DNA from: Chlamydiota bacterium
GTDB taxonomy: Bacteria > Chlamydiota > Chlamydiia > Chlamydiales > SM23-39
DNA length: 64,000 nt
Reading direction: 5' to 3'
Assembly: GCA_027366035.1 (NCBI GenBank)
Contig: DAHXLK010000052.1
Span: forward strand, 1,949-65,948
The position numbers and the translations under genes were made by a program. Positions within the stretch are counted from its first letter, which is position 1. Each line of letters begins with the position of its first letter. This document shows positions 186 to 21,927 of the stretch, piece by piece. The notes beneath the pieces are model-generated. The model was given only the letters and a program-made list of their open reading frames with translations. It was not told where the DNA came from and searched no databases.

Positions 186-956
186 ATGAAAACGGTTTTA
201 TTAGCCGGTGGTCTTGGCACAAGGATTTCCGAGCTTACCTATCAAATTCCCAAGCCAATGGTAGAGGTGGGGGATAAGCCTATTTTATGGCATATCATGA
301 ACCTCTATTCCCATTATGGTTTTCATGAGTTTGTTATTGCTTTAGGGTATAAAGCAGAGGTTATAAAAGGCTATTTCCTCCATTACTATGAAAAAAGCGG
401 AGACCTTACGGTCGATCTAAGATCGGGGAAAATAATTACCCATAATAAAGAAGCACCGGATTGGAAAATCCATTTAGTAGATACAGGCTTGCATACACAG
501 ACAGGAGGGAGGATCAAGAGATTAAAAAAATGGATTGGCAATGAGACATTTTTATTAACTTATGGAGATGGAGTTGCCGATATCGATTTGCCGGCACTTG
601 TAGCTTTTCATAAAAAACATAAGAAACTGGCTACGGTAACGGCAGTGCGTCCTCCCGCAAGATTTGGAGCTTTAGAAATAGAGGATACTCACGTGACCCA
701 ATTTTCAGAAAAAAGCCCTTCGAAAGAGGGGTGGATAAATGGTGGATTTTTTGTCTTAGAACCGGAGATTTTCGATTTTATTCACGGAGATGAGACGGCA
801 TGGGAAAAAGACCCTTTGGAAGCTTTAGCTAAGGCAAGAGAACTGACTGCCTATTGCCACCATGGATTTTGGCAGCCCATGGATACTTTAAGAGATCATC
901 GTCATTTAGAACATCTTTGGATAACAGGTCAAGCTCCCTGGAAGATATGGCAATAG
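186..956 (+). CDS. rfbF: glucose-1-phosphate cytidylyltransferase
   Basis: The N-terminal nucleotidyltransferase loop LLAGGLGTRISE..PKPMVEVGDKPILWHIM and the 256-aa length are typical of RfbF/DdhA. Its stop overlaps the next gene's ATG. Confidence 0.85.
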   Translation: MKTVLLAGGLGTRISELTYQIPKPMVEVGDKPILWHIMNLYSHYGFHEFVIALGYKAEVIKGYFLHYYEKSGDLTVDLRSGKIITHNKEAPDWKIHLVDTGLHTQTGGRIKRLKKWIGNETFLLTYGDGVADIDLPALVAFHKKHKKLATVTAVRPPARFGALEIEDTHVTQFSEKSPSKEGWINGGFFVLEPEIFDFIHGDETAWEKDPLEALAKARELTAYCHHGFWQPMDTLRDHRHLEHLWITGQAPWKIWQ

Positions 957-1960
957 AAAACTTTTGGCAAGGTAAAAGGATATTGATTACAGGGGCTACG
1001 GGGCTGGTAGGCGGGTGGCTCTCTGAGGCCCTTATCAAAAAAGGGGCTGAGATTATTTTCCTCATACGAGATCTCGATCCTAATAGCCTGCTTGTTTTAA
1101 AAGATACTTTAAGAAAGGGTCAAGTAGTGCAAGGCTCACTGGAAGATGGGGTCTCTTGTGAGAGGGCGATAGTAGAGTATGGGGTGGATACGGTATTTCA
1201 TTTGGCCGCACAGGCTATTGTAGAGACAGGTTTGCGCAGCCCTCTTATTACCTTTGAAGCCAATATTCGGGGGAGCTACCTCCTTTTCGAAGCTTGTCGA
1301 AGGCAAAAGGAGCTGGTACAGAGAATCGTTGTTGCATCCAGCGATAAGGCTTATGGCTCGAGTCCCCATTTACCCTATACCGAGAAGATGCCCCTAGCCG
1401 GAAGGCATCCTTATGACGTCTCTAAATCGTGTGCCGATCTGCTTGCAGTATCTTATTTTCATACCTACCACCTTCCAATCGTTATTGCCAGATGTGGCAA
1501 TATCTTTGGTGGAGGAGACCTTCACTTTAGCCGGATTGTTCCGGGGACTATTCGGAGTTTATTAAAAGATGAAACACCCGTTATTAGAAGTAATGGTCTT
1601 CTGACACGCGACTATATTTATGTGGAAGATGTGGTCGACGCCTACCTCTCTTTAGGAGAGCAGCTGAGAAGGGAAGGAGTCCAAGGAGAGGCTTTTAATT
1701 TTGGACCCAACCGCCCCTATTCGGTAAAAGAGATGGTCGCTGCTTTACAAACTCTTATGGGAAAAACTCATCTGAAACCAAAGATACTCGATCAGGCCCA
1801 CTTGGAAATCAAAGATCAAACACTTGACTCGTCTAAGGCTAAAAAGATCCTCGGTTGGAAACCCAAATATAGCCTTGAAGAAGGACTAGCAAAAACTATA
1901 CAATGGTACAAACACTATTTTATATGCACGTCAAATGTCGATTTTGCTCCCACCCCTTAA
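947..1960 (+). CDS. rfbG: CDP-glucose 4,6-dehydratase (extended SDR)
   Basis: Internal ATG at 947 gives MAIENFWQGKRILITGATGLVGGWL, the classic RfbG N-terminus. The YDVSK catalytic motif is present. The tracked ORF start at 854 lies inside rfbF and is rejected. Confidence 0.8.
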   Translation: MAIENFWQGKRILITGATGLVGGWLSEALIKKGAEIIFLIRDLDPNSLLVLKDTLRKGQVVQGSLEDGVSCERAIVEYGVDTVFHLAAQAIVETGLRSPLITFEANIRGSYLLFEACRRQKELVQRIVVASSDKAYGSSPHLPYTEKMPLAGRHPYDVSKSCADLLAVSYFHTYHLPIVIARCGNIFGGGDLHFSRIVPGTIRSLLKDETPVIRSNGLLTRDYIYVEDVVDAYLSLGEQLRREGVQGEAFNFGPNRPYSVKEMVAALQTLMGKTHLKPKILDQAHLEIKDQTLDSSKAKKILGWKPKYSLEEGLAKTIQWYKHYFICTSNVDFAPTP

Positions 1961-3153
1961 AGCATACCTTTTGTGATTTTGGTCAAACCCCCCTTTCCAA
2001 TGCCTATGTAAAGGGGGGAGATTTGCTAAGCGAAGAGCCCCGTTTTCCTCTACATGCCTATGTGTGTGAAACTTGTTTGTTGGTTCAGTTACAAGAGTTT
2101 CAATCTCCCGATCAGATATTTTCAGAATATCTCTATTTTTCTTCCTACTCTACTTCTTGGCTAGCACATGCAAAAAAGTATGTCGAAGGGATGGTCGAAA
2201 GATTCTCCTATGATCCCTCTTATCAAGTAGTCGAAATCGCAAGTAATGATGGGTATCTACTCCAATATTTTCAAAAAAAAAACATCCCCGTTTTGGGGAT
2301 CGACCCGGCGAGGAATGTAGCAGATGTAGCGAATGCAAAGGGGATCCCCACTCTCCCCCTTTTTTTTGGAGCCCGTACTGCTTTGGATCTAGCAGGGCAA
2401 GGGAAAAAAGGGGATCTGATCATCGGGAATAACGTATTAGCCCATGTTCCCGATATCAATGATTTTGTAAAAGGTTTGAAAATTTTGCTGAAGCCGGAAG
2501 GGATAATTACCCTAGAATTTCCCCACCTTCTTCAACTAATGGAACAAAATCAATTCGACACCTTGTACCATGAACATTTTTCCTATCTCTCGTTGTACAC
2601 AACTGAAAAAATTTTTGCGGCGCATGGTCTAAAATTATTCGATGTGGAGGAGCTGACAACTCATGGGGGCTCCTTACGAGTCTATGCCTGTCATATAGAG
2701 TCGAAGAGGAATAGATCTTCGAAAGTGGAAGATGTATTACATAAAGAGGTGGCTTATGGCTTAACGAATATTACCACCTATCTATCTTTTGCTGATAAAG
2801 CGAAGAAAATAAAATCAGATCTATGCTATCTCTTGATTTCATTAAAAGGTCAGGGAAAAAAGGTAGTGGGATATGGAGCTCCCGCGAAAGGTAATACGTT
2901 ATTAAATTTTTGTAATATCACAGCGGAATTATTGGAATATACGGTAGATATTAATCCGCACAAACAAGGACTGTTTTTACCGGGGACTCATATTCCCATT
3001 TACCCCCCTGAAAAAATCAAAGAGACCAAGCCGGACTACATTATTATTCTCCCCTGGAACTTACAAGAGGAGATTCAGAGTCAGATGTCTTTTGTTCGTC
3101 AATGGGGGTGTCGCTGGATACTCCCTATGCCCCATGTAACAATTTTGCCTTAA
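1924..3153 (+). CDS. NDP-hexose C-methyltransferase-like protein (Zn-ribbon N-terminus, SAM-MT core, C-methyltransferase C-terminal domain)
   Basis: CxxC..CxxC N-terminus (CRFCSH..CETC), SAM-binding core VVEIASNDGYLL, and C-terminal VVGYGAPAKGNTLLN..DINPHKQG. This architecture matches the TylCIII-type family. The start at 1924 (MHVKC) is preferred over 1903. Confidence 0.7.
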   Translation: MHVKCRFCSHPLKHTFCDFGQTPLSNAYVKGGDLLSEEPRFPLHAYVCETCLLVQLQEFQSPDQIFSEYLYFSSYSTSWLAHAKKYVEGMVERFSYDPSYQVVEIASNDGYLLQYFQKKNIPVLGIDPARNVADVANAKGIPTLPLFFGARTALDLAGQGKKGDLIIGNNVLAHVPDINDFVKGLKILLKPEGIITLEFPHLLQLMEQNQFDTLYHEHFSYLSLYTTEKIFAAHGLKLFDVEELTTHGGSLRVYACHIESKRNRSSKVEDVLHKEVAYGLTNITTYLSFADKAKKIKSDLCYLLISLKGQGKKVVGYGAPAKGNTLLNFCNITAELLEYTVDINPHKQGLFLPGTHIPIYPPEKIKETKPDYIIILPWNLQEEIQSQMSFVRQWGCRWILPMPHVTILP

Positions 3154-3156
3154 GGG

Positions 3157-4818
3157 GTGCCGGTAATGAGATCGTTGAAATCTCTTCTAAAAAAAGTCGT
3201 CAAGAGAGGAATATTTTGTGCTCTCTATGTTTTCTTAAAGCTGCAAGATGCCACATTTTTATCGATAGGTTCTTACATAAGAAGATTATTAAATTTCATT
3301 TTTTGGAGTCTAAAAGATCGAGCCTACTACCTAATGCCTATAATTCTTGCTTATCAAAGCGCTTCTCATCGAGCTAATCTTTTTATCCCAACGGTCAGGT
3401 TTTCTTCTTCTCAAAAATATAAACTAATGTTTCTTTATATTTCTAATGGCCTTTTACGATTATCGCAAAACATAGCTATCGAACTTTTAGGACAGCTTTC
3501 CGACCCATTTCTTGCAAAACAGTCTTTAGCAATCTATCGTTATGCGGGTATTAATGCTTTCATGTTGGGTCAAAATAAAGAAGCCCTTTTTTATTGGGGA
3601 ATGTCGGGAAAGATTAAGAAAAACTATATACAAGCTACCACCCCTACCCACTACCGGATATTAGGATCCTCATGGTTTGCAGCCGTAGGGCATATCATCC
3701 AGTTGGAATTTTATTTTAAATACCTCCTTCTTTATAAACAAAATCACCTACGTATCATAGCGATACTCCCCTTAAATGATCCTATATGGAAACGAATGGG
3801 ATGTGCTATCAACATCCTTCGAAAATTTCAAGCAAAAGGTCTTACGATCTTACACGAAGGAGAGATAGAACAAGACTATGATGTCTGGGCTATGGAAAAT
3901 AATTGTCTACGTTGGCAAGAGCTCAGCGAGGAAGACAAAAAATCCATGGTCGATGAGTTTTGGGAATATGAACTGGAAGAAGGCAACTTTACCGGTTATA
4001 CCCATTTTTGTTATTGGGTTCAAAAAAAGTGGGATGAAAAAAAATATCCCCCATTGTTTTCGATAACCTCTTCCGAAAGGATAGGGCTGCAACGGTATTT
4101 GCAGGATTTAGGGATACCACAAAAGGCCTGGTATGTCTGCCTGCATGTACGGGAAGGGGGATTTCATAAAGAATGGAACAGGCAATTGCCCTCTATGCGA
4201 GACTCCTCTATTGAAGATTATTATTCTGCCATTAAAGAGATCACTCGGGCAGGAGGATGGGTAATACGGATTGGGGACGCCAGCATGAAGCCCCTTGTTT
4301 CGATGCCTCAAGTGATCGATTATGCCCACCACCCCCGTAAAATCGCTACTTTTGACCTACTATTTCTCGCTACTTCCCTTTTTTTCTTGGGCACCAACTC
4401 GGGGATTGCCAATATCACACATCTTTATGGAATTCCTTGTGCATATACAAACTGGGTCCCTATCGGATGGCCTATGTGGAGTGAGCAAGATCTGATGATT
4501 TGTAAGCTTTTTATAGAAAAGAGAAGTGGATGTTTTTTATCTTTAAAAGAGATCTTTGCACAAAATCTTGCTTTTTTGCAAAATGTGGAAGACTTGCCTA
4601 AAGAAATTGAGATCGTATGCAATTCGCCAGAGGATATCCGACAGCTAACACTCGATATGTTATCTTCCTTGCATTTTAAAAATAAGTCTTTTGAAGATAT
4701 TGCAGCTCCTGAAGCCGTACAAAAATCCTATTCGAAAATAGCCTCTCAGCATGGGACTTATACCTATACAAAGTTAGCCGGGTTTTTTGTAGAAAAATAT
4801 TCCGCAGTTTTTCAATGA
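3157..4818 (+). CDS. putative glycosyltransferase, TIGR04372-like C-terminal half; N-terminal half unknown
   Basis: The C-terminal region WYVCLHVREGGF..AGGWVIRIGD..FFLGTNSGI is paralogous to the product of 9298..10500. The family name is recalled from memory and not verified. An alternative ATG start lies at 3166. Confidence 0.4.
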   Translation: MPVMRSLKSLLKKVVKRGIFCALYVFLKLQDATFLSIGSYIRRLLNFIFWSLKDRAYYLMPIILAYQSASHRANLFIPTVRFSSSQKYKLMFLYISNGLLRLSQNIAIELLGQLSDPFLAKQSLAIYRYAGINAFMLGQNKEALFYWGMSGKIKKNYIQATTPTHYRILGSSWFAAVGHIIQLEFYFKYLLLYKQNHLRIIAILPLNDPIWKRMGCAINILRKFQAKGLTILHEGEIEQDYDVWAMENNCLRWQELSEEDKKSMVDEFWEYELEEGNFTGYTHFCYWVQKKWDEKKYPPLFSITSSERIGLQRYLQDLGIPQKAWYVCLHVREGGFHKEWNRQLPSMRDSSIEDYYSAIKEITRAGGWVIRIGDASMKPLVSMPQVIDYAHHPRKIATFDLLFLATSLFFLGTNSGIANITHLYGIPCAYTNWVPIGWPMWSEQDLMICKLFIEKRSGCFLSLKEIFAQNLAFLQNVEDLPKEIEIVCNSPEDIRQLTLDMLSSLHFKNKSFEDIAAPEAVQKSYSKIASQHGTYTYTKLAGFFVEKYSAVFQ

Positions 4819-6284
4819 TACCTGCCGTAAATGAAATTAAAAACCAGATACCGAAAAATAAGAAAGTTGCTTTCATTTCAGGTAATTTCAATGTCGTCCA
4901 TCCGGGACATCTCCGACTGATCAATTTTGCCGCCGAATGTGCCGATTATGTAGTCATAGGGCTATTTCCCGACGGATCGCGAGATGCCTTTATCCCACAA
5001 GATTTGCGCCTTCAAGGGATACAGGCTCTATCGCAAGTACACTTCTCTCTCATACTACCTAGCAAGGTAGAAGAGTTTATTCAATATTTACGGCCGGATA
5101 TCGTGGTAAAAGGAAAAGAGCATGCTTTTTTAACCAATGTAGAGCAGCCCATTGTGGAGGCCTATGGTGGGGAATTGCTTTTTGCCTCCGGAGAAACTTG
5201 GTTTTCTTCTCTGAACCTTTTGAAAAAGGAATTACAAGCTCACTCCTTAAAAACATTCAATAAACCTATATCTTTCTTAAATCGTCATGTTATCGATAAC
5301 CATAAGTTATCGAAAATTATCGATCAGTTTCCCGATCTACATGTCGTAGTATTGGGAGATTTGATTGTTGATGAGTATATCTTTTGCACCCCCTTGGGAA
5401 TGTCACAGGAAGACCCTACCCTTGTTATGACTCCGATCAAGCGGGAACGCTTTCTTGGAGGTTCAGCTATCGTAGCTGCTCATGCTAAGAGTTTAGGGGC
5501 AAAAGTGGACTATTTTACTTGTGTGGGAAATGACCCTATAGCTACCTATGCAAGACATACCTTAAACACCTATCATGTCGACTTTCATTTTCTCATCGAT
5601 GAGAGTAGGCCTACGACATTAAAACAACGCTTTCGATGTAAAGGGAATACCTTACTCAGAATCTCAGAGCTAAGACAACATGAAATCAGCCCGCAGCTAC
5701 AAAAGGAGCTTTTGAATAAGCTCTACTGTAGTCTTACTACGGCCAACCTATTGGTCTTTTCCGATTTTAACTATGGTTTTTTACCCCAATCTTTGGTAGA
5801 TGCTATTACCTCTTTTTGCTTAGCTAAAAATATCCCTATGGTTGCCGATAGCCAGTCCTCTTCTCAAATAGGCGATATCGGCCGGTTTAAAGAGATGTTG
5901 CTCATCACCCCAACTGAAAGGGAAGCAAGGCTTGCTATACAAGATTCCCATTCAGGGTTGATAGAGGTGGCAGATAAGCTGAGGAAAAAAGCCAAAGCCA
6001 AACATCTCTTACTCACTTTAGGAGAAGAGGGTGTATTGATCTATTCCCCAGAAAACGGGGCCAATACATTCAACGCTGACGAACTGCCGAGGTTTAATCT
6101 AGAGGCCAAAGACCCTTCCGGAGCGGGAGATTCCTTGTTCATCTCCTCTTCTATGTCGTTGATTTTAGGTGCCAGCATTTATGAGAGTGCCTACTTAGGC
6201 TCCATTGCTGCTGCTTGCCAGGTCAGTCATATCGGCAATATCCCCTTACAACCCGAAGAATTAAAAAAAGAGCTTTTGATATGA
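4815..6284 (+). CDS. bifunctional cytidylyl/adenylyltransferase-like plus PfkB heptose-7-phosphate kinase-like protein (HldE-like, reversed domain order)
   Basis: The N-terminal FISGNFNVVHPGHLRLI carries the HxGH nucleotidyltransferase motif. The C-terminal VVVLGDLIVDEY..GGSAIVAAHAKSLGA..DPSGAGDS matches the RfaE domain I / PfkB kinase. Confidence 0.7.
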   Translation: MIPAVNEIKNQIPKNKKVAFISGNFNVVHPGHLRLINFAAECADYVVIGLFPDGSRDAFIPQDLRLQGIQALSQVHFSLILPSKVEEFIQYLRPDIVVKGKEHAFLTNVEQPIVEAYGGELLFASGETWFSSLNLLKKELQAHSLKTFNKPISFLNRHVIDNHKLSKIIDQFPDLHVVVLGDLIVDEYIFCTPLGMSQEDPTLVMTPIKRERFLGGSAIVAAHAKSLGAKVDYFTCVGNDPIATYARHTLNTYHVDFHFLIDESRPTTLKQRFRCKGNTLLRISELRQHEISPQLQKELLNKLYCSLTTANLLVFSDFNYGFLPQSLVDAITSFCLAKNIPMVADSQSSSQIGDIGRFKEMLLITPTEREARLAIQDSHSGLIEVADKLRKKAKAKHLLLTLGEEGVLIYSPENGANTFNADELPRFNLEAKDPSGAGDSLFISSSMSLILGASIYESAYLGSIAAACQVSHIGNIPLQPEELKKELLI

Positions 6285-6982
6285 AGGCGCTACTTGTAGC
6301 CGCAGGGTTAGGGACGAGGTTACGGCCGATTACCTATAAAATCCCGAAATGTTTAGTCCCCATTCATGGTAAGCCCCTCTTAGGGTACTGGATAGAGCGA
6401 TTAGTAGAGCAAGGGATAGAACATATTTATATCAATACCCACTACTTAGCGGAGGCGGTAGAGGCTTATGTCGGATCCCATCCTCTTCGCAATCACATTA
6501 CCCTTGTCTATGAAGAGAGGTTACTGGGGACTGGAGGAACCCTGAAAAAACTAGGAGCTCTATTAGGAGGACAAGCCTTCTTATTTGCCCATGCCGACAA
6601 CCTCACGAAATTTGAGCTTGCCTCTTTTATCGAAGCTCACCAAGCTCGAGGAGAGGGGGTAGAGATTACGATGATGACTTTTCTAACCGATACTCCCCAC
6701 GCTTGCGGCATTGTCGAATGGAATCAAGATAGGAGGGTCACCGCTTTTTATGAGAAAGTGGTTGATCCTCCCGGAAATCATGCCAATGCAGCCGTATATC
6801 TCTTGGAGCCGAGTGTCCATCATTTCCTATCTCTTATCCCTAAAGAGGTAATCGATTTTAGCACCGAAGTATTGCCCCACTATCTTCATCGGATGCAAGT
6901 CTTTTCTAATTCTACCTATCATCGAGATATAGGATCGTTGAAAAGCCTCTATTTAGCAGAGCAAGAGTTTGCTTATGATTGA
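6281..6982 (+). CDS. sugar-1-phosphate nucleotidyltransferase (HddC/ManC-like)
   Basis: MKALLVAAGLGTRLRPITYKIPKCLVPIHGKPLL signature. ATGA overlap with the upstream stop. The tracked 6215 start is rejected. Confidence 0.7.
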   Translation: MKALLVAAGLGTRLRPITYKIPKCLVPIHGKPLLGYWIERLVEQGIEHIYINTHYLAEAVEAYVGSHPLRNHITLVYEERLLGTGGTLKKLGALLGGQAFLFAHADNLTKFELASFIEAHQARGEGVEITMMTFLTDTPHACGIVEWNQDRRVTAFYEKVVDPPGNHANAAVYLLEPSVHHFLSLIPKEVIDFSTEVLPHYLHRMQVFSNSTYHRDIGSLKSLYLAEQEFAYD

Positions 6983-7640
6983 AAAGCAATATGAGGGCCA
7001 TTTAGAACTTAAACGAAAAAAGGGGTTGACTCGGCTAGGTATTGAGAAAAGTGCTAGTTGGCAGCTAGATCCCAGACATTTAGCGTTTTCCCTTTCTCGC
7101 TACAAATTTGTGGCTAAGATGCTTTCAGGAAAAAAAAATGTGTTAGAGGTAGGGTGTGGAGATGGTTTTGCTATACCAATTGTTTTGCAAGAGGTAGGGT
7201 CTGTCCATGCGGTGGATATCGATCCCGTTTTTATCGAAGACATAGCAGAAAGGGTAGAGGATACTTGGCCTTTTACCTTTGCGGTTCATGATATCCTCTC
7301 AGGATCCCTTCCCAACATATATGATGGGGCATATTTTCTCGATGTTTTTGAACATATACCGATGAGTCATGAGAGAATATTGTTAAAAAATATTGCCAAC
7401 AGCCTTATATCCACCGGAGTATGTATTTTGGGGACCCCTTCTTTGGAATCACAAGCTTATGCATCTAGTTTAAGTAAACAAGGACATATAAATTGCAAAA
7501 GCGGACCGGATCTAAAAAAGCTGATGTTAGACTATTTTGATAATGTTTTTCTTTTTTCTATGAATGATGAGATTGTCCATACCGGATATTATGTTATGGC
7601 TCACTACTTATTTGTGATAGGGTGTGGGGTAAAAAGATGA
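6975..7640 (+). CDS. class I SAM-dependent methyltransferase
   Basis: Motif I VLEVGCGDGF and a post-I acidic residue (AVDID). The ATG at 6975 overlaps the upstream stop by 8 nt. Confidence 0.65.
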   Translation: MIEKQYEGHLELKRKKGLTRLGIEKSASWQLDPRHLAFSLSRYKFVAKMLSGKKNVLEVGCGDGFAIPIVLQEVGSVHAVDIDPVFIEDIAERVEDTWPFTFAVHDILSGSLPNIYDGAYFLDVFEHIPMSHERILLKNIANSLISTGVCILGTPSLESQAYASSLSKQGHINCKSGPDLKKLMLDYFDNVFLFSMNDEIVHTGYYVMAHYLFVIGCGVKR

Positions 7641-9219: not shown

Positions 9220-9228
9220 AAGGTCTAT

Positions 9229-9275
9229 GGAAGCAAGGGTAAAATTTTAACCAACCGGGAGATCGAAACAGTCCC
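9229..9275. repeat. partial copy of the palindromic element family (A-prime arm only)
   Basis: ggaagcaagggtaaaattttaaccaaccgggagatcgaaacagtccc matches the right arm of the full copies. It carries the ccggg variant shared with 11605 and 46551. Confidence 0.85.
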
Positions 9276-9297
9276 ACTTTTAAAGTTTTAAAAAGTT

Positions 9298-11691: not shown

Positions 11692-11700
11692 AGATCGCCA

Positions 11701-14953: not shown

Positions 14954-15485
14954 TAATACCATAGTAAATTACGATAAGGCCTTTTATAAGGCGGCCCGTG
15001 AGTGGCAGATAATCCCTGAGAGCCTACCCCAAGCAAAACTCGCCGTTCGTAACTATTTACATAGGAGAAATGAGGGGGAGGTCTGGACAAAACTGCAAGG
15101 GTATGTCTATGGTACTTTAATGGATGAAGCTGAGCTGTTTTTGGGATGTGGCGATTTCCTTACAAGATATAGAGAAAAAATCTTTGTCATCAGCCACAAA
15201 ACGGTCCATCCCATTATAGGTCCGAGATGGAATCTACATGCCGCTGCTAGAGCGTGGATCGAGACACACCTCTCTTTAAAAAACAGTCAGATATTTTTCG
15301 AAACTACCATAGAGGAGAAAATCAAAAGAATCCAACTCTCTCAGTGTGATGTTTTTATCGATGATCTTCCTGAAATTCTCCTCCACCCCCAATTTCCAAA
15401 AAGTGCGATCCCCCTACTTTTTGATCCTGAAAAGGGTAACGCTCTTCATTTGCAAAGCTTTTCCTCTTGGAAGGAGCTATGTTAA
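14895..15485 (+). CDS. HAD-superfamily hydrolase-like protein (possible sugar-phosphate phosphatase)
   Basis: DxDxT motif IGIDFDNTIV and a later VFIDDLPE. The start is uncertain (14895 or 14904), and either overlaps the transketolase gene end. Confidence 0.45.
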   Translation: MALMEKRWLKQSSIIGIDFDNTIVNYDKAFYKAAREWQIIPESLPQAKLAVRNYLHRRNEGEVWTKLQGYVYGTLMDEAELFLGCGDFLTRYREKIFVISHKTVHPIIGPRWNLHAAARAWIETHLSLKNSQIFFETTIEEKIKRIQLSQCDVFIDDLPEILLHPQFPKSAIPLLFDPEKGNALHLQSFSSWKELC

Positions 15486-16408
15486 AAGAGATTTCTGCCC
15501 TTCTCTTTACTTGTGGTGTTTCGGCTCGTCCCTTTACGGTTTCTTCACACGGAGCAGGGGGGAACAATCAAACCTATAAAGTAGAGGCTAATGGTCAATT
15601 ATTCTTACTAAAAAGATATTACTCACTAGATAGGCTACAAGCCGAATATCGATTTTTACAATATGCGGGAAGGGTAGCTCCTGAATATGTACCAAAAGTA
15701 TATGGAAAAATAGATGGATACAATATGGGGCTATATGAATATCTCGATGGGGAAAAGGTAACCCATATTGGTGAGAGGGAAATAGAGGGAGCGATCGATT
15801 TTTTCTCTCGTCTCAATCATCCTGAAAGTAAAATATATGCGCAGGATTTAGGAGAGGCAAAAGAGGCCTGCTTCTCTTTACGAGACCACGTTGATCTTGT
15901 GAAGGGGAGGATTGTAGAGCTGCAGCAAATTCCTGAAACGAGCCAAGAGGCGACAGAGGCAAAAGAGATTGCCTATAAGCTGGAGCGATTGTTACCGATA
16001 TTCGACGACCCTACCCCTTTGTCTGTTGAAGATAGGTGTATATCCCCTTCTGATTTTGGTTTCCATAATGCACTTCGGACCAAAATAGGAGCCCTTTATT
16101 TTTTCGATTTCGAATATGGGGGATGGGATGATCCCGGAAAGATGGTAGGAGATTTTTTTTCCCAAATTGCCGGCCCTATCCCTTATACCTTTTTCCCCCT
16201 CTTTACCGAGAAAACTCTCCGATCAAAAAGATTGATCGAGCGGGCAAAACAGCTCCTCCCTCTTTACCGGATAAAGTGGTGTACCATTGTCCTTAATATC
16301 TTTCTCCCCTATCATCTCCATCGTCGAAAATTTGCTGGCAATAGGGATGCCCTTACCCTTTTACAAAGGAAGCAATTGGAGAAAGTCAAACACTATGGCT
16401 TATATTGA
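15479..16408 (+). CDS. aminoglycoside/choline-kinase-family phosphotransferase
   Basis: SPSDFGFHNAL catalytic loop and FFDFEYGGWDDP metal-binding segment. Alternative start at 15467. Confidence 0.6.
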   Translation: MLKEISALLFTCGVSARPFTVSSHGAGGNNQTYKVEANGQLFLLKRYYSLDRLQAEYRFLQYAGRVAPEYVPKVYGKIDGYNMGLYEYLDGEKVTHIGEREIEGAIDFFSRLNHPESKIYAQDLGEAKEACFSLRDHVDLVKGRIVELQQIPETSQEATEAKEIAYKLERLLPIFDDPTPLSVEDRCISPSDFGFHNALRTKIGALYFFDFEYGGWDDPGKMVGDFFSQIAGPIPYTFFPLFTEKTLRSKRLIERAKQLLPLYRIKWCTIVLNIFLPYHLHRRKFAGNRDALTLLQRKQLEKVKHYGLY

Positions 16409-17066
16409 TTTCATGTCAACCCTTCACAAAAGTACTCGAAGGGATTATCTCGCGAGAGTAAATGATCCTGAATATCCAAAAGAGAGGGCGGCAGAGCTTG
16501 CGAAAAAATGGGGTTATGAATACTGGGATGGAGATAGGAGGATCTGTTATGGTGGATATAAATATTTAGAGGGGAGATGGGAAAAGGTAGCTAGAGCTCT
16601 CATTGAATACTACAAGATCAAACCCAAAGATAAGATTTTAGATATTGGGTGTGGGAAAGGCTTTTTGCTTTTTGATTTCACCAAGATAGTGCCTGGGGTA
16701 GAAATCTATGGCATCGACATCTCGGAATATGCGATTTCTCATGGAAAAGAGGAAATCAAAGATCACCTACAGGTGGGGAGGGCCACTTCTTTGCCGTTTG
16801 CAGATAACACTTTTGACCTTGTAATTTCTATTAATACCTTTCATAATCTTTATAACTACGAGCTAGATAAAGCCTTGCGGGAGATGGAACGTGTAGGGAA
16901 ACAATGTAAATACCTGTGTGCCGAGTCTTACCGTAATGAAAAAGAGAAAGTCAATCTCCTTTACTGGCAGGTTACATGCGAGACTTTTTGTACTCCGGAA
17001 GAATGGGAGTGGTGGTTTTTTCATACCGGTTATACGGGTGACCATTCTTTTATTTATTTTGAATGA
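16395..17066 (+). CDS. class I SAM-dependent methyltransferase
   Basis: ILDIGCGKGFLLFDF motif I. The ATG at 16395 is preferred, because the tracked 16287 start lies inside the kinase gene. Confidence 0.7.
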   Translation: MAYIDFMSTLHKSTRRDYLARVNDPEYPKERAAELAKKWGYEYWDGDRRICYGGYKYLEGRWEKVARALIEYYKIKPKDKILDIGCGKGFLLFDFTKIVPGVEIYGIDISEYAISHGKEEIKDHLQVGRATSLPFADNTFDLVISINTFHNLYNYELDKALREMERVGKQCKYLCAESYRNEKEKVNLLYWQVTCETFCTPEEWEWWFFHTGYTGDHSFIYFE

Positions 17067-18100
17067 CCATGTTAGCAGCGATACTTGTACAGCAAAAAAC
17101 TCCTCTTATTATCGATGAAGTCGAGTTGCCCAAGCATCTAGGTGTAGGGCAGCTTCTTGTGAAGGTGCATTATAGTGGTATTTGCGGCTCTCAATTAGGG
17201 GAGATCGACGGGGTTAAGGGAACAGATAAATATCTCCCCCATCTTTTGGGACATGAAGGTTCAGCAGAGGTGGTCGCAATAGGGGAGGGGGTATCGGAGG
17301 TGCAGCCGGGAGATAAGGTGGTCCTTCATTGGAGAAAGGGGAAGGGGATTGAAGGCAAACCCCCTATCTATTCCTGGAAGGGGAGGGAGGTGAATGCCGG
17401 GTGGGTGACTACTTTTAACGAATATGCTGTCGTTTCTGAAAATAGGGTAACCCCTTTACCTAAAGGGGCTGACCTACAGGTAGCTGCCCTATTTGGCTGT
17501 GCTATCACCACCGGTTTTGGCGTGGTGGTCAATAATGCTAAGCTGACGATTGGAGAATCTGTTGTTGTCTATGGTTCGGGAGGAATCGGCCTTCATATTT
17601 TACAAGGGGCAGCTTTAAGTGGGGCTTATCCTATCATTGCGATCGATCGGATCGAAGGGAGGTTAGAGCTTGCGAAACAATGTGGAGCTACCCATCTTAT
17701 CCATAGCGAAAAGGAGGATCTTGCCGGTGCAATCCGGAGGGCGACCCCTCTTGGCCTCGACTGCTTTATCGACAATACAGGAAATCCACAAGTGATCCAA
17801 ATGGGCTACTTGGCGACCAAACCAAAAGGGAGGGTTATTTTGGTAGGGGTACCTAATGTGGGCAATGATATTGTGATACACTCACTTCCCCTTCATTTTG
17901 GCAAAGAGATTCGGGGTTCTCATGGAGGAGAGGCAGAGCCTCATATCGATATTCCAAAGTATTACGCCCTTTTACAGGCGGGGCGCCTCTCTTTCAAAGA
18001 GTGTGTGACCGACATTTTTCCACTTACAGAGATCAATCAAGCCATACAAGCCATGCGTGAAGGGAGGACGAAAGGGAGATGTCTTATTCAAATGGGGTAA
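17063..18100 (+). CDS. zinc-dependent alcohol dehydrogenase family (MDR) oxidoreductase
   Basis: GICGSQL..GHEGSAEVVAIGEGV zinc-ligand region and VVYGSGGIGL NAD-binding motif. Confidence 0.8.
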   Translation: MTMLAAILVQQKTPLIIDEVELPKHLGVGQLLVKVHYSGICGSQLGEIDGVKGTDKYLPHLLGHEGSAEVVAIGEGVSEVQPGDKVVLHWRKGKGIEGKPPIYSWKGREVNAGWVTTFNEYAVVSENRVTPLPKGADLQVAALFGCAITTGFGVVVNNAKLTIGESVVVYGSGGIGLHILQGAALSGAYPIIAIDRIEGRLELAKQCGATHLIHSEKEDLAGAIRRATPLGLDCFIDNTGNPQVIQMGYLATKPKGRVILVGVPNVGNDIVIHSLPLHFGKEIRGSHGGEAEPHIDIPKYYALLQAGRLSFKECVTDIFPLTEINQAIQAMREGRTKGRCLIQMG

Positions 18101-18105
18101 CTAGG

Positions 18106-18858
18106 ATGAAAGAGCAAGTTTTTGGCGATAGGGGCTACTCATCGGATATGCATCTTGATCCTTATGAGCTAGCGATTTTTCAAACACATATCTATCAGCA
18201 GTGGATCGATGTCCTTGGATCAAAATATCCGGCGTTGCGAGAAAAAGGGGAGAGTTTGGGGATCGTTTATTACCATTACTTCTCTGACCGGATCGATCAT
18301 AGTTCTTTATGGCCCAAAAAAAATCGCCTCCTCCCTCCTCATGCTGTAGCCGAGATCAAATCGCTGTCCTTTATGCAGAGGCTTCGAGAAGAATTTGGTG
18401 ATTTTTCCCTTTCCGACATTTATGACACCCATCAGCACCATGGAGAGGAGGAGATTTATTGGAGGTTAGTCCGTCCTCGTCAACAGGGAGATGTAGGTTC
18501 GCTTCATCGCGATTGTTGGTTCCATGAGGCGTTTAATAATGGGAAGGGGATGTTTCCGAAAGGGACAACGACGATAAAGGTATGGATACCCATTTACTGC
18601 GAACCGGGAAAAAGTGGTCTTGCTATTGTGGCTGGTTCTCATTTAAGAACCTGGAGGTATCATGTGGAAATGGTGGGGGGGAATCCGAAACCCATTTTGG
18701 ATGAAGATATAAGTCAGATTGAGGCAAAATTAATCCCCACAGAGCCCGGTAATCTATTGATTTTTAATGAAAATGTCTTACATGGAGGCGCTCTGAACCG
18801 GGGTGAAAAAACAAGGGTGAGTGCAGAGATAACCTTAGTATTAAGAGAGCCTTTATGA
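18106..18858 (+). CDS. Fe(II)/2-oxoglutarate dioxygenase, PhyH-like (putative)
   Basis: HxD (GSLHRDCW), a distal His (NVLHGG) and an Arg (TRVSAEI), in the PhyH-like order. Start chosen at MKEQVF. Confidence 0.45.
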   Translation: MKEQVFGDRGYSSDMHLDPYELAIFQTHIYQQWIDVLGSKYPALREKGESLGIVYYHYFSDRIDHSSLWPKKNRLLPPHAVAEIKSLSFMQRLREEFGDFSLSDIYDTHQHHGEEEIYWRLVRPRQQGDVGSLHRDCWFHEAFNNGKGMFPKGTTTIKVWIPIYCEPGKSGLAIVAGSHLRTWRYHVEMVGGNPKPILDEDISQIEAKLIPTEPGNLLIFNENVLHGGALNRGEKTRVSAEITLVLREPL

Positions 18859-19589
18859 ATCATTCGGTAGTGGTTGGCGGCACTAAAGGTCTAGGAAAGG
18901 TGGTCGTTAAAAAATTGCTGGCAAGAGGGGACCTTGTCTCTATTTTAGCTAGAAATAGTTATTCCGATCTTTTTTCTGAAAACGCCCACTCTTTTCCTGC
19001 CGATATTACCCAAAAAGAGGAACTATTATCCTCGTTACAGAGTATTGTGGAGAAGTTTTCAAAGGTGAACTACCTCGTCTTTTTACAACGTTACCGTGGG
19101 GACAAAGATGATTGGGAAGGGGAGTTTCATACTAGCCTTACCGCCACCCGCCATATCATCGATTTTTTTATTCCTCATTTTCAAGAGGTTGGAGATAAAG
19201 CGATCGTCATGGTGAGCTCGGTCTTTGCTAAATATGTGGGAAAGGGGCAACCTCCAAGTTATCATGTGATGAAGGCGGGACTCGATCAGCTGATGCGTTA
19301 TTATGCGGTGAATTTAGGGGAACAGGGGATTAGGTCAAATGGGATCACCCCCTTTACCTTTTTAAAAGAAGAGTCAAAACATTTTTATCTCAATAATGAG
19401 CCTCTACATAATTTATATAAAAAGATCATCCCTCTGCAGCGGATGGGAACCACCGAAGATTCGGCCGATGTGATTGAATTTTTATGTAGTCCTAAGGCGG
19501 GTTATCTGACGGGGCAAAATATCGTTGTAGATGGTGGTCTTTCGTTAGTATGGCCTGAAACGTTAGCTAGGAGTCTCGCAAAATTATGA
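18855..19589 (+). CDS. short-chain dehydrogenase/reductase (classical SDR)
   Basis: VVVGGTKGLGKVV cofactor motif and YHVMK catalytic motif. Confidence 0.75.
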   Translation: MNHSVVVGGTKGLGKVVVKKLLARGDLVSILARNSYSDLFSENAHSFPADITQKEELLSSLQSIVEKFSKVNYLVFLQRYRGDKDDWEGEFHTSLTATRHIIDFFIPHFQEVGDKAIVMVSSVFAKYVGKGQPPSYHVMKAGLDQLMRYYAVNLGEQGIRSNGITPFTFLKEESKHFYLNNEPLHNLYKKIIPLQRMGTTEDSADVIEFLCSPKAGYLTGQNIVVDGGLSLVWPETLARSLAKL

Positions 19590-20809
19590 AGCGAGATCGA
19601 TGTATCCTCTGTGACGAAGAAAGGCTTGTCAAAATCCTTCCTATGAGGCCTTCACCTATTGCCGACGCTTTTGTCTGTGAAAAAGTAGAGCAAGAGTTGA
19701 TCCCCTTAGATCTCTATCAGTGTGGGAAGTGTGGCCATACTCAAAATATCGACCGAGTCGACCCCGAACGTCTTTTTAGAAAATATCTCTTTACCACAAA
19801 AAGCTCCCCTTATCTGGTCAAACATTTCGCTGCTTATGCTGAAGAAGCAGTAAAAAGGTTCTCTCTTCCTCCGCAAGCGTTTGTGTGTGAAATAGGAAGC
19901 AATGATGGGACCCTCCTACAATTTTTCAAGGAGAAAAAGATGTCGGTATTAGGGGTTGACCCTGCTGTGGAAATTGCCAATCTAGCAACAGGGCAAAATA
20001 TTCCTACTATCCCCGATTTTTTTTCTTCTATCCTTGCTGCTTCGATAAAAAAGGAAAAAGGGGTAGCAAAACTGATTGTTGCCAACAATGTTTATGCCCA
20101 TACCGACCGGCTAAGAGACATCACGAAAGGGATTGAATTATTACTCGATGACGATGGGGTGTTTATCTTCGAAGTCTCCTATCTTTTAGATATTATCGAT
20201 AATTTTCTTTTCGACACCATCTATCATGAACATCTCTGCTATCATTCGATCACACCATTAATCCCCTTTTTTCAAGGGTTGGGATTAGAACTCTTTTCAG
20301 TAGAGAGGATTCCTAGCAAAGGGGGATCAATCCGTGCTTTTGTGCAAAAACAAGGGGGGCCTCACAAAAAAGAAGCTGTGATCGATCAGATGGTCGAGAA
20401 TGAAAAGAAAAGGGGGTTACATCTCCCGGAAATATTTCGCCGGTTTTATCAAGATATAAACAAAAAAAAGGGGGCTCTGTTAGAGGCTATTGCCCGGGCA
20501 GAGTCTGAGAAAAAACAGATCGTAGGCTATGGCGCTTCGAATACGGTGACAACTCTGATCTATCAATTTGAGCTGGAAAAACGACTAACCTATCTTGTCG
20601 ACGATAATGTTAAAAAACATCACCTTTTCAGCCCCGGGGCTCATTTAAAAGTTTTTCCAAGCAAAGCCCTTTATGAAAATTTTCCCGCCCTCGTGATCCT
20701 TTTGGCCTGGCAATACGCTACACCGATTTTGCAAAAACATAGCCAATTTATCGAAAATGGGGGTGTTTTTATTATCCCCCTACCTACTTTACAGATAATA
20801 AAAAAATGA
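19586..20809 (+). CDS. NDP-hexose C-methyltransferase-like protein (third paralog)
   Basis: CILCDE..CGKCGH Zn-ribbon, VCEIGSNDGTLL core, and IVGYGASNTVTTLIY..DDNVKKHH C-terminal domain. Confidence 0.7.
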   Translation: MKRDRCILCDEERLVKILPMRPSPIADAFVCEKVEQELIPLDLYQCGKCGHTQNIDRVDPERLFRKYLFTTKSSPYLVKHFAAYAEEAVKRFSLPPQAFVCEIGSNDGTLLQFFKEKKMSVLGVDPAVEIANLATGQNIPTIPDFFSSILAASIKKEKGVAKLIVANNVYAHTDRLRDITKGIELLLDDDGVFIFEVSYLLDIIDNFLFDTIYHEHLCYHSITPLIPFFQGLGLELFSVERIPSKGGSIRAFVQKQGGPHKKEAVIDQMVENEKKRGLHLPEIFRRFYQDINKKKGALLEAIARAESEKKQIVGYGASNTVTTLIYQFELEKRLTYLVDDNVKKHHLFSPGAHLKVFPSKALYENFPALVILLAWQYATPILQKHSQFIENGGVFIIPLPTLQIIKK

Positions 20810-21927
20810 CCCATTTAGACTTTTACCAAGCTCACCGTATCGCCCCTGTCAGTTATGACATGTCGGATATGGAGGCCCATCTCAAACGGAGGGAGTCGCT
20901 CTATCTCCATTTAAAGCTACCTCCGATTGCCTTTCGCGGGGCTAAGGTGTTAGAGGTGGCGGCGGGGTTAGGGCATAATAGTCTCTACGTTGCCCATATG
21001 AGACCTTCTAAGCTTGTCCTTTTGGAACCGAATCCTACTGCAGTGGAGGGGATCCATCATGCCTTTGCGACTTTCGACAAAAAGCACACTTTTCCTGAGG
21101 TGGTTGCGGAGAAATTGGAAGAATATATTTCCCAAGATCCTTTCGACATTGTCCTTTGTGAAAATTGGTTGGGAACTTCAAAACATGAGCGTTCTTTATT
21201 GCATAAGCTACTAAACCTTTGTTCTTCTTCCGGGCATCTTGTGATCACGACGATCTCTCCGATTGGTTTTGTTCCTAACCTCCTCCGGAGGTTTTTAGCT
21301 CGATTTATAGCTCCTATATCGTTAGATTTTCAGACGAGGACCTCTCGGCTATTAAAAGCATTTTCCCCCCATCTTAAAACGGTACAAAGCATGACTCGGA
21401 GCCATAAAGATTGGGTGCAAGATAACCTGTTAAACCCTGCCTATTTTGGGATAGCTCTCAGCCTCCCCAAAGTGATCGAAGAAATTGGGGGGAGGTGTTA
21501 TGTGATCGGTACTTCTCCCTCTTTTATCGAGGATTGGCGCTGGTTTAAAAGTCTTTATCGAGATTCTCAAAAATGGAATGAACTTGCCCTGTTACAATAC
21601 CGGATAAAAGCCCATAATTTTTTAGACTATCGTGAGCCTCCGACAACAGGGGACCCATTAGTGAATCAAGCCTTAGAAGAAAAGGCCGAAGCGCTTATCG
21701 AGGCGGTGCATAAAGATGAAATTAACCCCTCTTTTCAAAATGTCCTTACCTTATTACAAGAGTTTTTATCTCTCCTCCCTCCTCATCTACCTGCTTTTGC
21801 TGCCTTACAGGAAGTAGAAGTAGCCGTAGGAGAGCTGATGAAGGGAAAACCCCTTCCTCCTATGCAAAAATTTTCACCGCTATTTGGCCGTGAGACTCTC
21901 TACCTTTCTTTAAAGACGTACTCATGA
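20806..21927 (+). CDS. SAM-dependent methyltransferase-like protein with long C-terminal extension
   Basis: VLEVAAGLGHNSLYVA motif-I-like segment. The remainder is unrecognised. Confidence 0.5.
   Translation: MTHLDFYQAHRIAPVSYDMSDMEAHLKRRESLYLHLKLPPIAFRGAKVLEVAAGLGHNSLYVAHMRPSKLVLLEPNPTAVEGIHHAFATFDKKHTFPEVVAEKLEEYISQDPFDIVLCENWLGTSKHERSLLHKLLNLCSSSGHLVITTISPIGFVPNLLRRFLARFIAPISLDFQTRTSRLLKAFSPHLKTVQSMTRSHKDWVQDNLLNPAYFGIALSLPKVIEEIGGRCYVIGTSPSFIEDWRWFKSLYRDSQKWNELALLQYRIKAHNFLDYREPPTTGDPLVNQALEEKAEALIEAVHKDEINPSFQNVLTLLQEFLSLLPPHLPAFAALQEVEVAVGELMKGKPLPPMQKFSPLFGRETLYLSLKTYS

Follow-up and report, generated by a model that had tools for sequence, protein, structure and literature searches.

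This study describes a block of 23 genes, at 186-21927 on the + strand of a 64,000-nucleotide stretch of contig DAHXLK010000052.1 (hereafter, the window), which encodes enzymes of nucleotide-sugar synthesis and tailoring together with two glycosyltransferases of the family TIGR04372. The initial annotation of the window had reported 23 co-directional and mostly overlapping genes in a chlamydia-like genome, and an open reading frame (ORF) listing with a cut-off of at least 165 aa gave exactly 23, with no rival long ORFs on the opposite strand across this interval. When maximal ORFs were used, taking the earliest possible start codon for each gene, 18 of the 22 junctions were overlapping, and the remaining four were gaps of 3, 78, 159, and 96 nt. 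Independent gene calls on the 100% identical Logan contig L001 placed the starts of the rfbG-like gene and of a nucleotidyltransferase gene later, at 947 and 6281; therefore, the way in which ORFs were defined has itself produced some of the long overlaps. The same comparison showed that the locus sequence is identical across independent assemblies. Concerning the host, the GroEL encoded at 41849-43474 (- strand) has its best named matches, at 80-82% identity, in metagenome-assembled genomes of Parachlamydiales, Chlamydiales, and Chlamydiia, and its nearest relatives overall are 88% identical. Therefore, the window comes from an uncultured member of the Chlamydiota, as had been supposed.

Family annotation of all 23 proteins was performed with the Pfam and NCBIfam hidden Markov models (HMMs), which reproduced every functional label given previously except that of a HAD-superfamily protein, recognized here by its motif GIDFDNT and its identity with one half of a fusion protein. 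In having dedicated nucleotide-sugar genes and glycosyltransferases in one operon-like block, the locus shares one feature of O-antigen or polysaccharide loci of the ABC-transporter-dependent pathway. In what follows, loci and proteins from other genomes are designated by the prefixes L and P, respectively.

The genes at 186-4818 form a first branch. RfbF, a glucose-1-phosphate cytidylyltransferase (186-956; TIGR02623, Pfam NTP_transferase), scored 386.4 bits against an equivalog cut-off of 300.25 bits and would make cytidine diphosphate (CDP)-glucose. It is followed by an RfbG-like extended short-chain dehydrogenase/reductase (SDR) resembling CDP-glucose 4,6-dehydratase (854-1960, probable true start 947; GDP_Man_Dehyd/Epimerase), whose best family is TIGR02622 at 212.9 bits, under the 278.45-bit cut-off, and which would convert CDP-glucose to CDP-4-keto-6-deoxyglucose. 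The third gene (1903-3153; Methyltransf_13 and Methyltransf_14) encodes a nucleoside diphosphate (NDP)-4-keto-6-deoxyhexose 3-C-methyltransferase of the TylC3/MtmC/TcaB9 type, carrying the Zn-binding N-terminal domain, the S-adenosylmethionine (SAM) domain, and the C-terminal Methyltransf_14 domain; it matched the D-mycarose 3-C-methyltransferase 4rv9 with 320.7 bits (residues 11-416), and TcaB9 and a sugar 3-C-methyltransferase with about 230 bits each. These three genes define a CDP-3-C-methyl-6-deoxyhexose branch, in which the MtmC/TcaB9-type enzyme would put a methyl group on C3 and a reduction would then yield CDP-3-C-methyl-6-deoxyhexose, with the adjacent long TIGR04372 enzyme transferring the sugar derived from it. 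CDP-vinelose of Azotobacter is a precedent for this type of nucleotide sugar.

The genes at 4815-21927 form a second branch, which would yield an activated heptose or heptose-derived sugar. Its first gene encodes an HldE-like fusion of reversed order (4815-6284; CTP_transf_like and PfkB), in which a cytidylyl/adenylyltransferase-like domain precedes a PfkB domain resembling heptose 7-phosphate kinase. Both halves retain their catalytic motifs (HPGH and GAGD), the scores are 185 bits for rfaE_dom_I (cut-off 345) and 53 bits for rfaE_dom_II (cut-off 181), and the sole match of the C-terminal half in the Protein Data Bank (PDB) is the heptose 7-phosphate kinase 4e84 (HldA). The next protein, a ManC/HddC-like sugar-1-phosphate nucleotidyltransferase (6215-6982, probable true start 6281; NTP_transferase, 115 bits), matched GDP-mannose pyrophosphorylases and, over its full length, a '6-deoxy-D-mannoheptose pathway protein' (6jq8/5xhw); it reached 67.5 bits against the 300 bits of the HddC equivalog NF049965, and in other loci its gene is always paired with the HldE-like gene. 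Further downstream lies an extended SDR of the nucleotide-sugar C4 oxidoreductase or epimerase type (10660-11604; Epimerase, 126 bits), whose best PDB match is 6vo6/6vo8 (109 bits), presumably the GDP-heptose C4-dehydrogenase Cj1427, and whose orthologues in L003, L009, L089, and L090 are 58-72% identical. A GmhA-like SIS sugar-phosphate isomerase (11701-12273; SIS_2, 77 bits; TIGR00441, 113 bits under the 209-bit cut-off) and an RmlB-type NDP-sugar 4,6-dehydratase-like SDR (12251-13234; TIGR01181, 212 bits under the 365-bit cut-off) follow, the latter matching the dTDP-glucose 4,6-dehydratase 6bi4 with 170 bits and the Campylobacter jejuni GDP-heptose 4,6-dehydratase 7us5 with 71 bits.

The other enzymes of the second branch are candidates for tailoring. 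They include a Zn-dependent medium-chain dehydrogenase/reductase (Zn-ADH; 17063-18100; ADH_N and ADH_zinc_N), with orthologues of 63-65% identity directly after a methyltransferase in L089 and L090; a PhyH-like Fe(II)/2-oxoglutarate dioxygenase (18079-18858; PhyH, 32 bits) with a weak match of 21 bits to TIGR04324 ('sporadic carbohydrate cluster 2OG-Fe(II) oxygenase'), in place of which L089 has an acyltransferase; a classical SDR as a ketoreductase candidate (18855-19589; adh_short_C2, 114 bits), 48% identical to its L089 orthologue; and a WbuC-family cupin (DUF6016; 8722-9219; TIGR04366, 131 bits against a cut-off of 42). Six methyltransferases are encoded in the locus, three of which, including that of the first branch, have the sugar C-methyltransferase architecture Methyltransf_13/14. 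The second of these (19586-20809; Methyltransf_14, 135 bits; Methyltransf_13, 42 bits) is full-length with the same domain architecture as the protein at 1903 and is 47% identical to its orthologue in L089, and the third (7622-8743) is divergent, with weak matches of 44 bits to each domain, and co-occurs in other loci with the 6969 methyltransferase, WbuC, and a TIGR04372 transferase. Of the class I SAM methyltransferases, that at 6969-7640 (Methyltransf_23/25/11) is probably an O-methyltransferase and has orthologues of 67-68% identity in L003 and L005, and that at 16287-17066 (Methyltransf_31/11/25), 73-76% identical in L035, L089, and L090, is the most conserved protein of the unit. The last gene (20806-21927) encodes a methyltransferase in which Methyltransf_23/31 covers residues 34-159 only and the C-terminal half of about 200 aa is uncharacterised; it has no NCBIfam match and a homologue, 43% identical, in L043.

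Two further genes encode a HAD-superfamily phosphatase of 196 aa (14895-15485; DxDxT motif GIDFDNT), which had no HMM match in Pfam or NCBIfam, and an APH/choline-kinase-fold small-molecule kinase of 313 aa (15467-16408; Pfam APH, 26 bits). The HAD protein is 47% identical to the N-terminal HAD half of the HAD::APH fusion P0313, and homologues of about 545 aa in other genomes fuse the HAD protein with the APH-type kinase. Since they are fused elsewhere, the two proteins act together, and the HAD protein, previously assigned to the heptose entry, is not simply a GmhB phosphatase. The AlphaFold model of the kinase (predicted local distance difference test, pLDDT, 94) had 5-methylthioribose kinase, itself an anomeric sugar kinase, as its top Foldseek match, followed by APH(9), choline, and macrolide kinases, and this model suggests that the protein is probably an anomeric sugar kinase. 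A phosphatase together with an anomeric kinase would shift a sugar phosphate from the chain end to C1. A WbdD-like methyl-phosphate terminator, that is, an APH kinase with a methyltransferase, was considered but found no support: the 313-aa protein has no extension comparable to the coiled-coil ruler of WbdD, its Foldseek matches are small-molecule kinases, and the fusion partner of the APH domain elsewhere is a HAD phosphatase and no methyltransferase.

A split transketolase, already recognized in the initial annotation, is indeed present; it is, however, no standard pentose phosphate pathway enzyme, as three residues of its acceptor site are replaced. The N-terminal, diphosphate-binding subunit (13212-14033; Transketolase_N) matched 6yak with 228 bits, in an alignment showing that the donor-site histidines (H, SKGH, HP, and WH positions) are retained, and the C-terminal, pyrimidine-binding subunit (13973-14953; Transket_pyr and Transketolase_C) matched 6yaj with 191 bits, so that the N-terminal, pyrimidine-binding, and C-terminal domains of a transketolase (EC 2.2.1.1) are all accounted for together with the donor histidines. 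In the C subunit, the canonical THAGLTVGEDGxSHQ is replaced by TGAGLAYAELGPTHH and the downstream GR by GK; THAGLTVGEDG thus becomes TGAGLAYAELG, and over both stretches Gly stands in place of His, Leu in place of Asp, and Lys in place of Arg. The three canonical residues are absent in 13 of 13 orthologues from glycan clusters, including those of L089 and L090, with the pattern TG(A/S)GL(A/S)YAELG and GK, in which the Gly and the Lys are invariant and the residue preceding Leu varies. In E. coli numbering, we take the residues replaced by Gly, Leu, and Lys to be His461, Asp469, and Arg520, respectively, of which His461 and Arg520 presumably hold the substrate phosphate and Asp469 the C2 hydroxyl of the acceptor. 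The split transketolase of Carboxydothermus hydrogenoformans (6yak/6yaj) is the best sequence match to both subunits and has the same two-gene architecture, although it keeps the canonical THAGLTVGEDG and GR (6yaj), which the glycan-cluster enzymes do not.

A role of the transketolase as a mere supplier of sedoheptulose 7-phosphate was rejected, given that it is kept in the module of free-living Proteobacteria and that its acceptor site is non-canonical; this role is also unlikely because L051 and L053 hold the heptose core without transketolase, HAD, or APH. More probably, the enzyme performs a specialised ketol transfer in sugar tailoring. The retained donor-site histidines imply the transfer of a glycolaldehyde unit and no acetyl unit, and the acceptor may be either an NDP-keto-sugar, which is a hypothesis, or a free deoxy-aldose. 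Literature searches combining transketolase, heptose, and methyltransferase returned nothing relevant.

The only glycosyltransferase candidates in the cluster are the two TIGR04372 proteins, as had been proposed, and both lie well above the family cut-off of 45 bits over the full 207-position domain. The long transferase (3157-4818), with an N-terminal extension of about 150 aa before its GT-B body, scored 179.5 bits over profile positions 1-206, is 41% identical to a 593-aa protein of L005, and aligns through residues 120-553 with other members of the family, some of them TPR-fused. The short transferase (9298-10500; 215.9 bits, profile positions 1-207) has an AlphaFold model (pLDDT 95) with a GT-B fold whose best Foldseek matches are 3tov, TibC, WaaF, and WaaC of GT9 (3tov, 4rap, 1psw, and 2gt1). 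The values against GT9 (E from 5e-5 to 1e-3, TM 0.3-0.56, and 10-15% identity) are modest, showing resemblance without establishing membership, and at the sequence level the short transferase had no match to Pfam Glyco_transf_9 or to any Pfam family at E <= 1e-3. Sequence searches against the PDB gave no significant match, and a profile search gave a marginal one to WaaF (E = 0.98). The short transferase has the GT-B fold in common with the GT9 heptosyltransferases WaaC, WaaF, and TibC, and its genomic context is rich in heptose-pathway genes, whereas TIGR04372 is a separate uncharacterised family, often TPR-fused and without a Pfam GT9 match.

A full-text literature search found no mention of TIGR04372. 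Among 5.8 billion proteins, no homologue of the short transferase exceeded 52% identity except itself, and 217 relatives were found in species-representative genomes of many phyla. Many proteins of the family (e.g., P0059, P0065, P0073, and P0109) bear N-terminal TPR repeats, reminiscent of protein-directed glycosyltransferases, and cyanobacterial genomes (Microcoleus) have several copies per contig. In many genomes a flavin-dependent (FAD) oxidoreductase of Pfam DAO adjoins the transferase (L003 11236-12456, L009 11118-12356, L035 11086-12345, L088 4713-5933, and, on the - strand, L006 11255-12457); the window cluster has none.

Protein-by-protein comparison with fetched loci showed that Gammaproteobacteria, Alphaproteobacteria, Omnitrophota, and a PVC-group genome of 2.28 Mb (L003) carry modules of the cluster, at identities of 36-76%. 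Five sub-modules travel as units: rfbF with the 3-C-methyltransferase (A); the HldE-like fusion with the nucleotidyltransferase (B); the 6969 methyltransferase, the C-methyltransferase-like protein, WbuC, and the TIGR04372 transferase (C); SDR, SIS, SDR, both transketolase subunits, HAD, and APH (D); and the 16287 methyltransferase with the Zn-ADH (E). An 11-gene block of L003 matches window 6969-16408 at 44-72% identity (modules C and D). In L089, a stretch collinear with window 10660-20809 (39-76% identity, 9 of 11 genes above 47%) is followed by module C, and the locus has 14 genes in common with the window overall; its gammaproteobacterial contig also holds a protein identical to one named from the cultured Methylomonas sp. 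YC3. L009 has 12 genes in common with the window, and L090 carries modules B, D, and E as a single run from the HldE-like gene through the ADH. No characterised relative of the cluster or of the syntenic loci was found, and literature searches on O-antigens in environmental chlamydiae returned nothing relevant.

Canonical polysaccharide machinery adjoins the modules in five of the six best syntenic loci. L089 has rmlBDAC and Wzm/Wzt; L003, Wzm/Wzt and a GT2-GT1 fusion; L009, a Wzt bearing the cap-binding domain Wzt_C; L090, Bac_transf and Wzz; and L005, Wzm/Wzt and GT2 enzymes along with polytopic membrane proteins and an LPG_synthase_TM protein. An iterative HMM search for Wzt_C across the loci drifted to generic ABC ATPases, and its result was not used. 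The flippase-like LPG_synthase_TM membrane protein lies between WbuC and the transferase in L005 (4194-5183) and L088 (2524-3531), and proteins with 9-10 transmembrane segments by hydropathy and no family match in Pfam or NCBIfam are encoded in L003 (18994-20532) and L005 (6203-9274); these hint at a periplasmic step, dependent on a lipid carrier, in some versions of the system. L003 is labelled 'uncultured Verrucomicrobiae' and encodes at 1-1183 (- strand) a topoisomerase I fused to a SWIB domain, a fusion that we take to be typical of Chlamydiae; the label may therefore hide a chlamydia-related organism.

The analysis establishes gene content, family assignments, folds, synteny, and active-site substitutions; the substrates, step order, acceptor, and export route that follow are inferred. 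The best reading of the sequences is that the product sugars would be CDP-3-C-methyl-6-deoxyhexose and a methylated heptose-derived sugar, every substrate and the order of steps being predicted. In the second branch, the GmhA-like isomerase, the HldE-like kinase/nucleotidyltransferase, the HddC-like nucleotidyltransferase, and the HAD/APH-kinase pair would produce the activated sugar; the RmlB-like 4,6-dehydratase and the second extended SDR would rework its C4-C6; the transketolase of altered acceptor site, the Zn-ADH, the short-chain reductase, and the dioxygenase would tailor it further; up to five methyltransferases would add O- and C-methyl groups; and the short TIGR04372 enzyme, with its GT9-like fold, would transfer the product.

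Since five of the six best syntenic loci adjoin polysaccharide machinery, the locus is of the O-polysaccharide type by family. By analogy with them, the reading that we tentatively place first, with less than even confidence, is that the window holds the chlamydial copy of a widespread, biochemically uncharacterised O-polysaccharide-type module, namely a cytoplasmic factory with two transferases serving a lipid-linked surface glycan whose export genes lie elsewhere. Both transfers would take place on the cytoplasmic side of the inner membrane, and their target would be a lipid-linked glycan destined for the cell surface; the acceptor would be an O-polysaccharide-like chain carrying the rare sugars as side or terminal residues, and the backbone transferases and a Wzm/Wzt exporter would lie outside the window.

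Several observations weigh against this O-polysaccharide reading, the local lack of exporters being the unusual part for a locus of this type. No Wzm, Wzt, Wzx, Wzy, Wzz, WaaL, or initiating transferase was found in the 64 kb window, nor in the 658 nt upstream of it available from L002, an ENA contig of the same organism, which extends the view of the initial annotation that no assembly or export genes were in sight. ABC2_membrane, the mark of a Wzm, had no match anywhere in the window; tblastn with the Wzm/Wzt of L003 and L005 matched only the gene at 51156-53072, which encodes an MsbA-type ABC exporter; and no polyprenyl-phosphate transferase of the WecA/WbaP type was found in the window, whereas Bac_transf is present in the relative L090. 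The cluster has no backbone glycosyltransferases of the GT2/GT4 type. A hydropathy scan found transmembrane segments in none of the 23 proteins, so that the locus is entirely cytoplasmic, with no ligase or membrane protein. In the relatives, the export and assembly genes are normally contiguous with the module, and no Chlamydiota label is attached to any of the 80 best genome loci. Moreover, this reading assigns no definite role to the transketolase, to the HAD/APH pair, or to the duplicated kinase and nucleotidyltransferase functions; the RfbG- and GmhA-like proteins, both HldE domains, and the RmlB-like protein fall under the equivalog cut-offs, so that their substrates may differ from those of their namesakes.

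The upstream 658 nt consist of a repeat-rich spacer and a divergent ORF fragment of 81 codons (L002 1-249, - strand, about 410-658 nt upstream of position 1). The latter looks like the start of an outer-membrane efflux lipoprotein of the NodT type, with …ILGGCHLGPKY… as its lipoprotein signal, and since it ends in a stop codon, it may be a pseudogene fragment.

The lack of export genes is what a second reading accounts for. Chlamydial lipopolysaccharide (LPS) is of the rough type with 3-deoxy-D-manno-octulosonic acid (Kdo) only, a minimal glycolipid and the genus antigen, and the heptosyltransferases WaaC and WaaF act on Kdo-lipid A at the cytoplasmic face. It is possible, and we rank it nearly as likely as the O-polysaccharide reading, that the two GT9-like transferases put the rare sugars directly on Kdo-lipid A, with export by MsbA and Lpt. 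Such decoration needs no Wzm/Wzt, Wzx/Wzy, initiating transferase, or ligase and would thus explain a locus without them. In agreement with this, the 23 proteins are all soluble, genes for assembly or export are not in sight, exactly two transferases serve two sugar branches without backbone transferases, an MsbA-type exporter is encoded within the window, and the nearest folds of the short transferase are the LPS heptosyltransferases, with the marginal WaaF profile match noted above. Polymer export or assembly genes nevertheless stand beside the module in five of the six best syntenic relatives, the fold similarity to GT9 is modest with no Glyco_transf_9 match, and acceptor specificity cannot be read from sequence.

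An extension of direct lipid A decoration, rather unlikely as a joint claim, is that the conserved transketolase/HAD/APH/SIS sub-unit may be a new route to a higher-carbon or branched sugar that would be placed directly on Kdo-lipid A. The altered transketolase would move a two-carbon ketol unit to a non-phosphorylated deoxy-aldose or an NDP-4-keto-6-deoxy sugar, the phosphatase/anomeric-kinase pair and a nucleotidyltransferase would activate or reactivate the product, and methylation would follow. The product would be an eight- or nine-carbon or glycolyl-branched methylated sugar, attached to Kdo-lipid A without O-antigen machinery; we know of no glycan in which such a sugar has been described.

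The cytoplasmic glycosylation of secreted or outer-membrane proteins before their export, for which no glycan export would be needed, is improbable. The GT9-like heptosyltransferases TibC and AAH glycosylate autotransporters, TibC ranks with the best structural matches to the short transferase, many TIGR04372 members carry the protein-binding TPR module at their N-terminus, and the locus is without membrane or export genes. However, neither transferase of the window has a Pfam-detectable TPR, no neighbouring gene is a candidate substrate, the syntenic relatives lie within polysaccharide loci, and the similarity to TibC is no better than that to the LPS heptosyltransferases.

That the locus makes a soluble glycoside or a free modified sugar (an antimetabolite or compatible solute) and no surface glycan is highly improbable: C-methyltransferases, APH-type kinases, and thiamine-diphosphate sugar enzymes are typical of antibiotic deoxysugar pathways and membrane machinery is absent, but there are no aglycone, scaffold, or efflux genes, and homologous modules consistently lie within O-polysaccharide-type loci.

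There is an equally slim chance that the cluster is a horizontally acquired, non-functional remnant that has lost its exporter and backbone genes, a view to which the exporters missing relative to other loci and the transposase-like gene (23109-24404) and mobile repeats flanking the locus would lend themselves. Against it, all 23 reading frames are intact and tightly packed across 22 kb, key motifs are kept (HPGH, GAGD, DxDxT, and the transketolase donor histidines), and the sequence is identical in independent assemblies. The composition is host-like: the cluster and the rest of the window have G+C contents of 0.429 and 0.429, values at third codon positions (GC3) of 0.409 and 0.424, and codon frequencies correlated at r = 0.95. 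Recent horizontal transfer finds no support in these values; the horizontal origin raised in the initial annotation thus leaves no compositional sign of a recent event, and the identities of 60-76% to gammaproteobacterial proteins argue for an inter-phylum transfer, but an ancient one. Repeat fragments occupy two of the three sizeable gaps of the cluster (9229-9284 and 11581-11688). The intact packed ORFs, the host-like composition, and these repeat fragments suggest that the locus is long-resident and under selection and no relic.

The repeats belong to a family of palindromic intergenic sequences of about 60-165 nt, resembling miniature inverted-repeat transposable elements (MITE) or repetitive extragenic palindromes (REP), which are 60-95% identical, occur in both orientations, and fill many spacers. 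Besides the two copies in the cluster, the window contains copies at 24876-25013, 36785-36986, 37748-37853, 38006-38189, 43916-44114, 46403-46600, 53956-54153, 62105-62291, and 63255-63418, and another lies upstream at about 400-570 of L002. The Logan assembly breaks at one copy, and the family had no match in Rfam. The transposase-like ORF (431 aa, 23109-24404, - strand), with helix-turn-helix domains and a weak rve_3 match, sits 1.2 kb downstream of the cluster, past a beta-carbonic anhydrase gene (22156-22809, + strand), and is perhaps the mark of an old boundary of insertion.

The rest of the window is housekeeping in character, encoding the beta-carbonic anhydrase, a ClpB/ClpC-type (Clp/Hsp100) ATPase, LplA, ProRS, GcvH, a POT transporter, cyclophilin, GroES/GroEL, an M3 peptidase, RpiA, TyrRS, HU, an L,D-transpeptidase, AccA, the MsbA-type exporter, pyruvate dehydrogenase E1 alpha, E1 beta, and E2, and CorA. 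The LplA-type lipoate-protein ligase, the GcvH-like lipoyl carrier, and the E1 alpha/E1 beta/E2 operon lie at 27587-28327, 32149-32493, and 58802-62063, respectively; the E1 beta is a domain-level paralogue of the transketolase C subunit of the cluster and an ordinary housekeeping gene. A 1421-aa ORF (32486-36751, + strand) had no Pfam match, and neither did the ORFs at 37029, 38252, 53061 (- strand), 54276, 56055, and 56759; these may encode lineage-specific chlamydial proteins. Rfam and tRNA scans of the window gave no matches, and the promoter and terminator scan was uninformative overall, with promoter counts at chance level.

A locus of nucleotide-sugar and glycosyltransferase genes is of a known kind. 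What is new is its occurrence in Chlamydiota without assembly genes, as well as the conserved, uncharacterised unit of 11-14 genes found across phyla (HldE-like fusion, nucleotidyltransferase, SIS isomerase, two SDRs, variant transketolase, HAD/APH pair, methyltransferase, ADH, C-methyltransferases, and TIGR04372 transferases), with its variant transketolase, HAD/APH pair, and GT9-like TIGR04372 transferases. The gene content, the host, and the absence of assembly and export genes from view, as put forward in the initial annotation, stand, whereas a chlamydial peculiarity does not, since the modules recur across phyla. Its general conclusion of an undescribed glycan or glycolipid is also right, because no characterised relative exists: neither a paper on TIGR04372 nor a sequence relative in the PDB was found. 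Compared with the bare Kdo lipopolysaccharide known from textbook chlamydiae, the surface glycan of this organism is probably richer. The intact 22 kb pathway for C-branched and methylated sugars implies a far more elaborate surface glycan in at least some environmental chlamydiae, a point relevant to host recognition and to the evolution of the envelope in this phylum. As the unit occurs on a contig linked to the cultured methanotroph Methylomonas sp. YC3, the sugar and the unusual transketolase reaction are directly testable.

Several known systems can be compared with the locus. In the biosynthesis of yersiniose and paulomycose, thiamine-diphosphate enzymes, namely YerE and the E1-type enzymes of the paulomycin and avilamycin pathways, attach a branch of two carbons to NDP-4-keto sugars, and ketoreduction then follows (PMC4753412). 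The window cluster resembles the yersiniose system in its CDP-hexose entry via RfbF/RfbG, and it resembles this system and the antibiotic C-4-branched sugars in having a 4,6-dehydratase with a thiamine-diphosphate enzyme of two subunits directly downstream, and with ketoreductase candidates (Zn-ADH and SDR) nearby. Unlike YerE-type systems, however, the enzyme of the window is a transketolase, neither of the acetolactate-synthase type nor of the pyruvate-dehydrogenase type.

In the capsular heptose pathway of C. jejuni, GmhA, a kinase, a phosphatase, and HddC act before the Cj1427 C4-dehydrogenase or a 4,6-dehydratase, epimerases, and reductases (PMC10680097). The second branch follows the same logic of isomerase, kinase, phosphatase, and nucleotidyltransferase before C4/C6 remodelling by extended SDRs, its 6215 protein matching HddC-type structures and its 12251 protein matching 7us5. 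In contrast to C. jejuni, the kinase of the window resembles PfkB/HldA and forms a fusion, of reversed order, with an HldC-like domain, its dehydratase is nearer to RmlB than to the GDP-mannose dehydratase type, and C. jejuni is without the transketolase, the HAD/APH pair, the three C-methyltransferases, and the dioxygenase.

With the Wzm/Wzt O-polysaccharide loci, as represented by the syntenic relatives L003, L005, and L089 (Wzm/Wzt) and L009 (Wzt bearing Wzt_C), the window has in common nucleotide-sugar genes, methyltransferases, and cytoplasmic transferases of single addition; it differs in being without Wzm/Wzt, backbone or initiating transferases, and membrane proteins. In loci dependent on an ABC transporter, Wzt_C recognises the terminal cap, as in E. 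coli O8/O9a. The kinase of the window, unlike a WbdD-type terminator, is a small-molecule enzyme of the APH fold, with a sugar-1-kinase as its best structural match.

Finally, the locus can be likened by description to the virenose system. Virenose is proposed to be GDP-linked and derived from GDP-mannose, whereas the entry in the window is CDP-glucose via RfbF; both systems have a 4-keto-6-deoxy intermediate and a C-3 methyltransferase. Both bacteria are intracellular, and as the virenose LPS is decorated with C-methyl-branched 6-deoxy sugars, this chlamydia would decorate its own LPS likewise.

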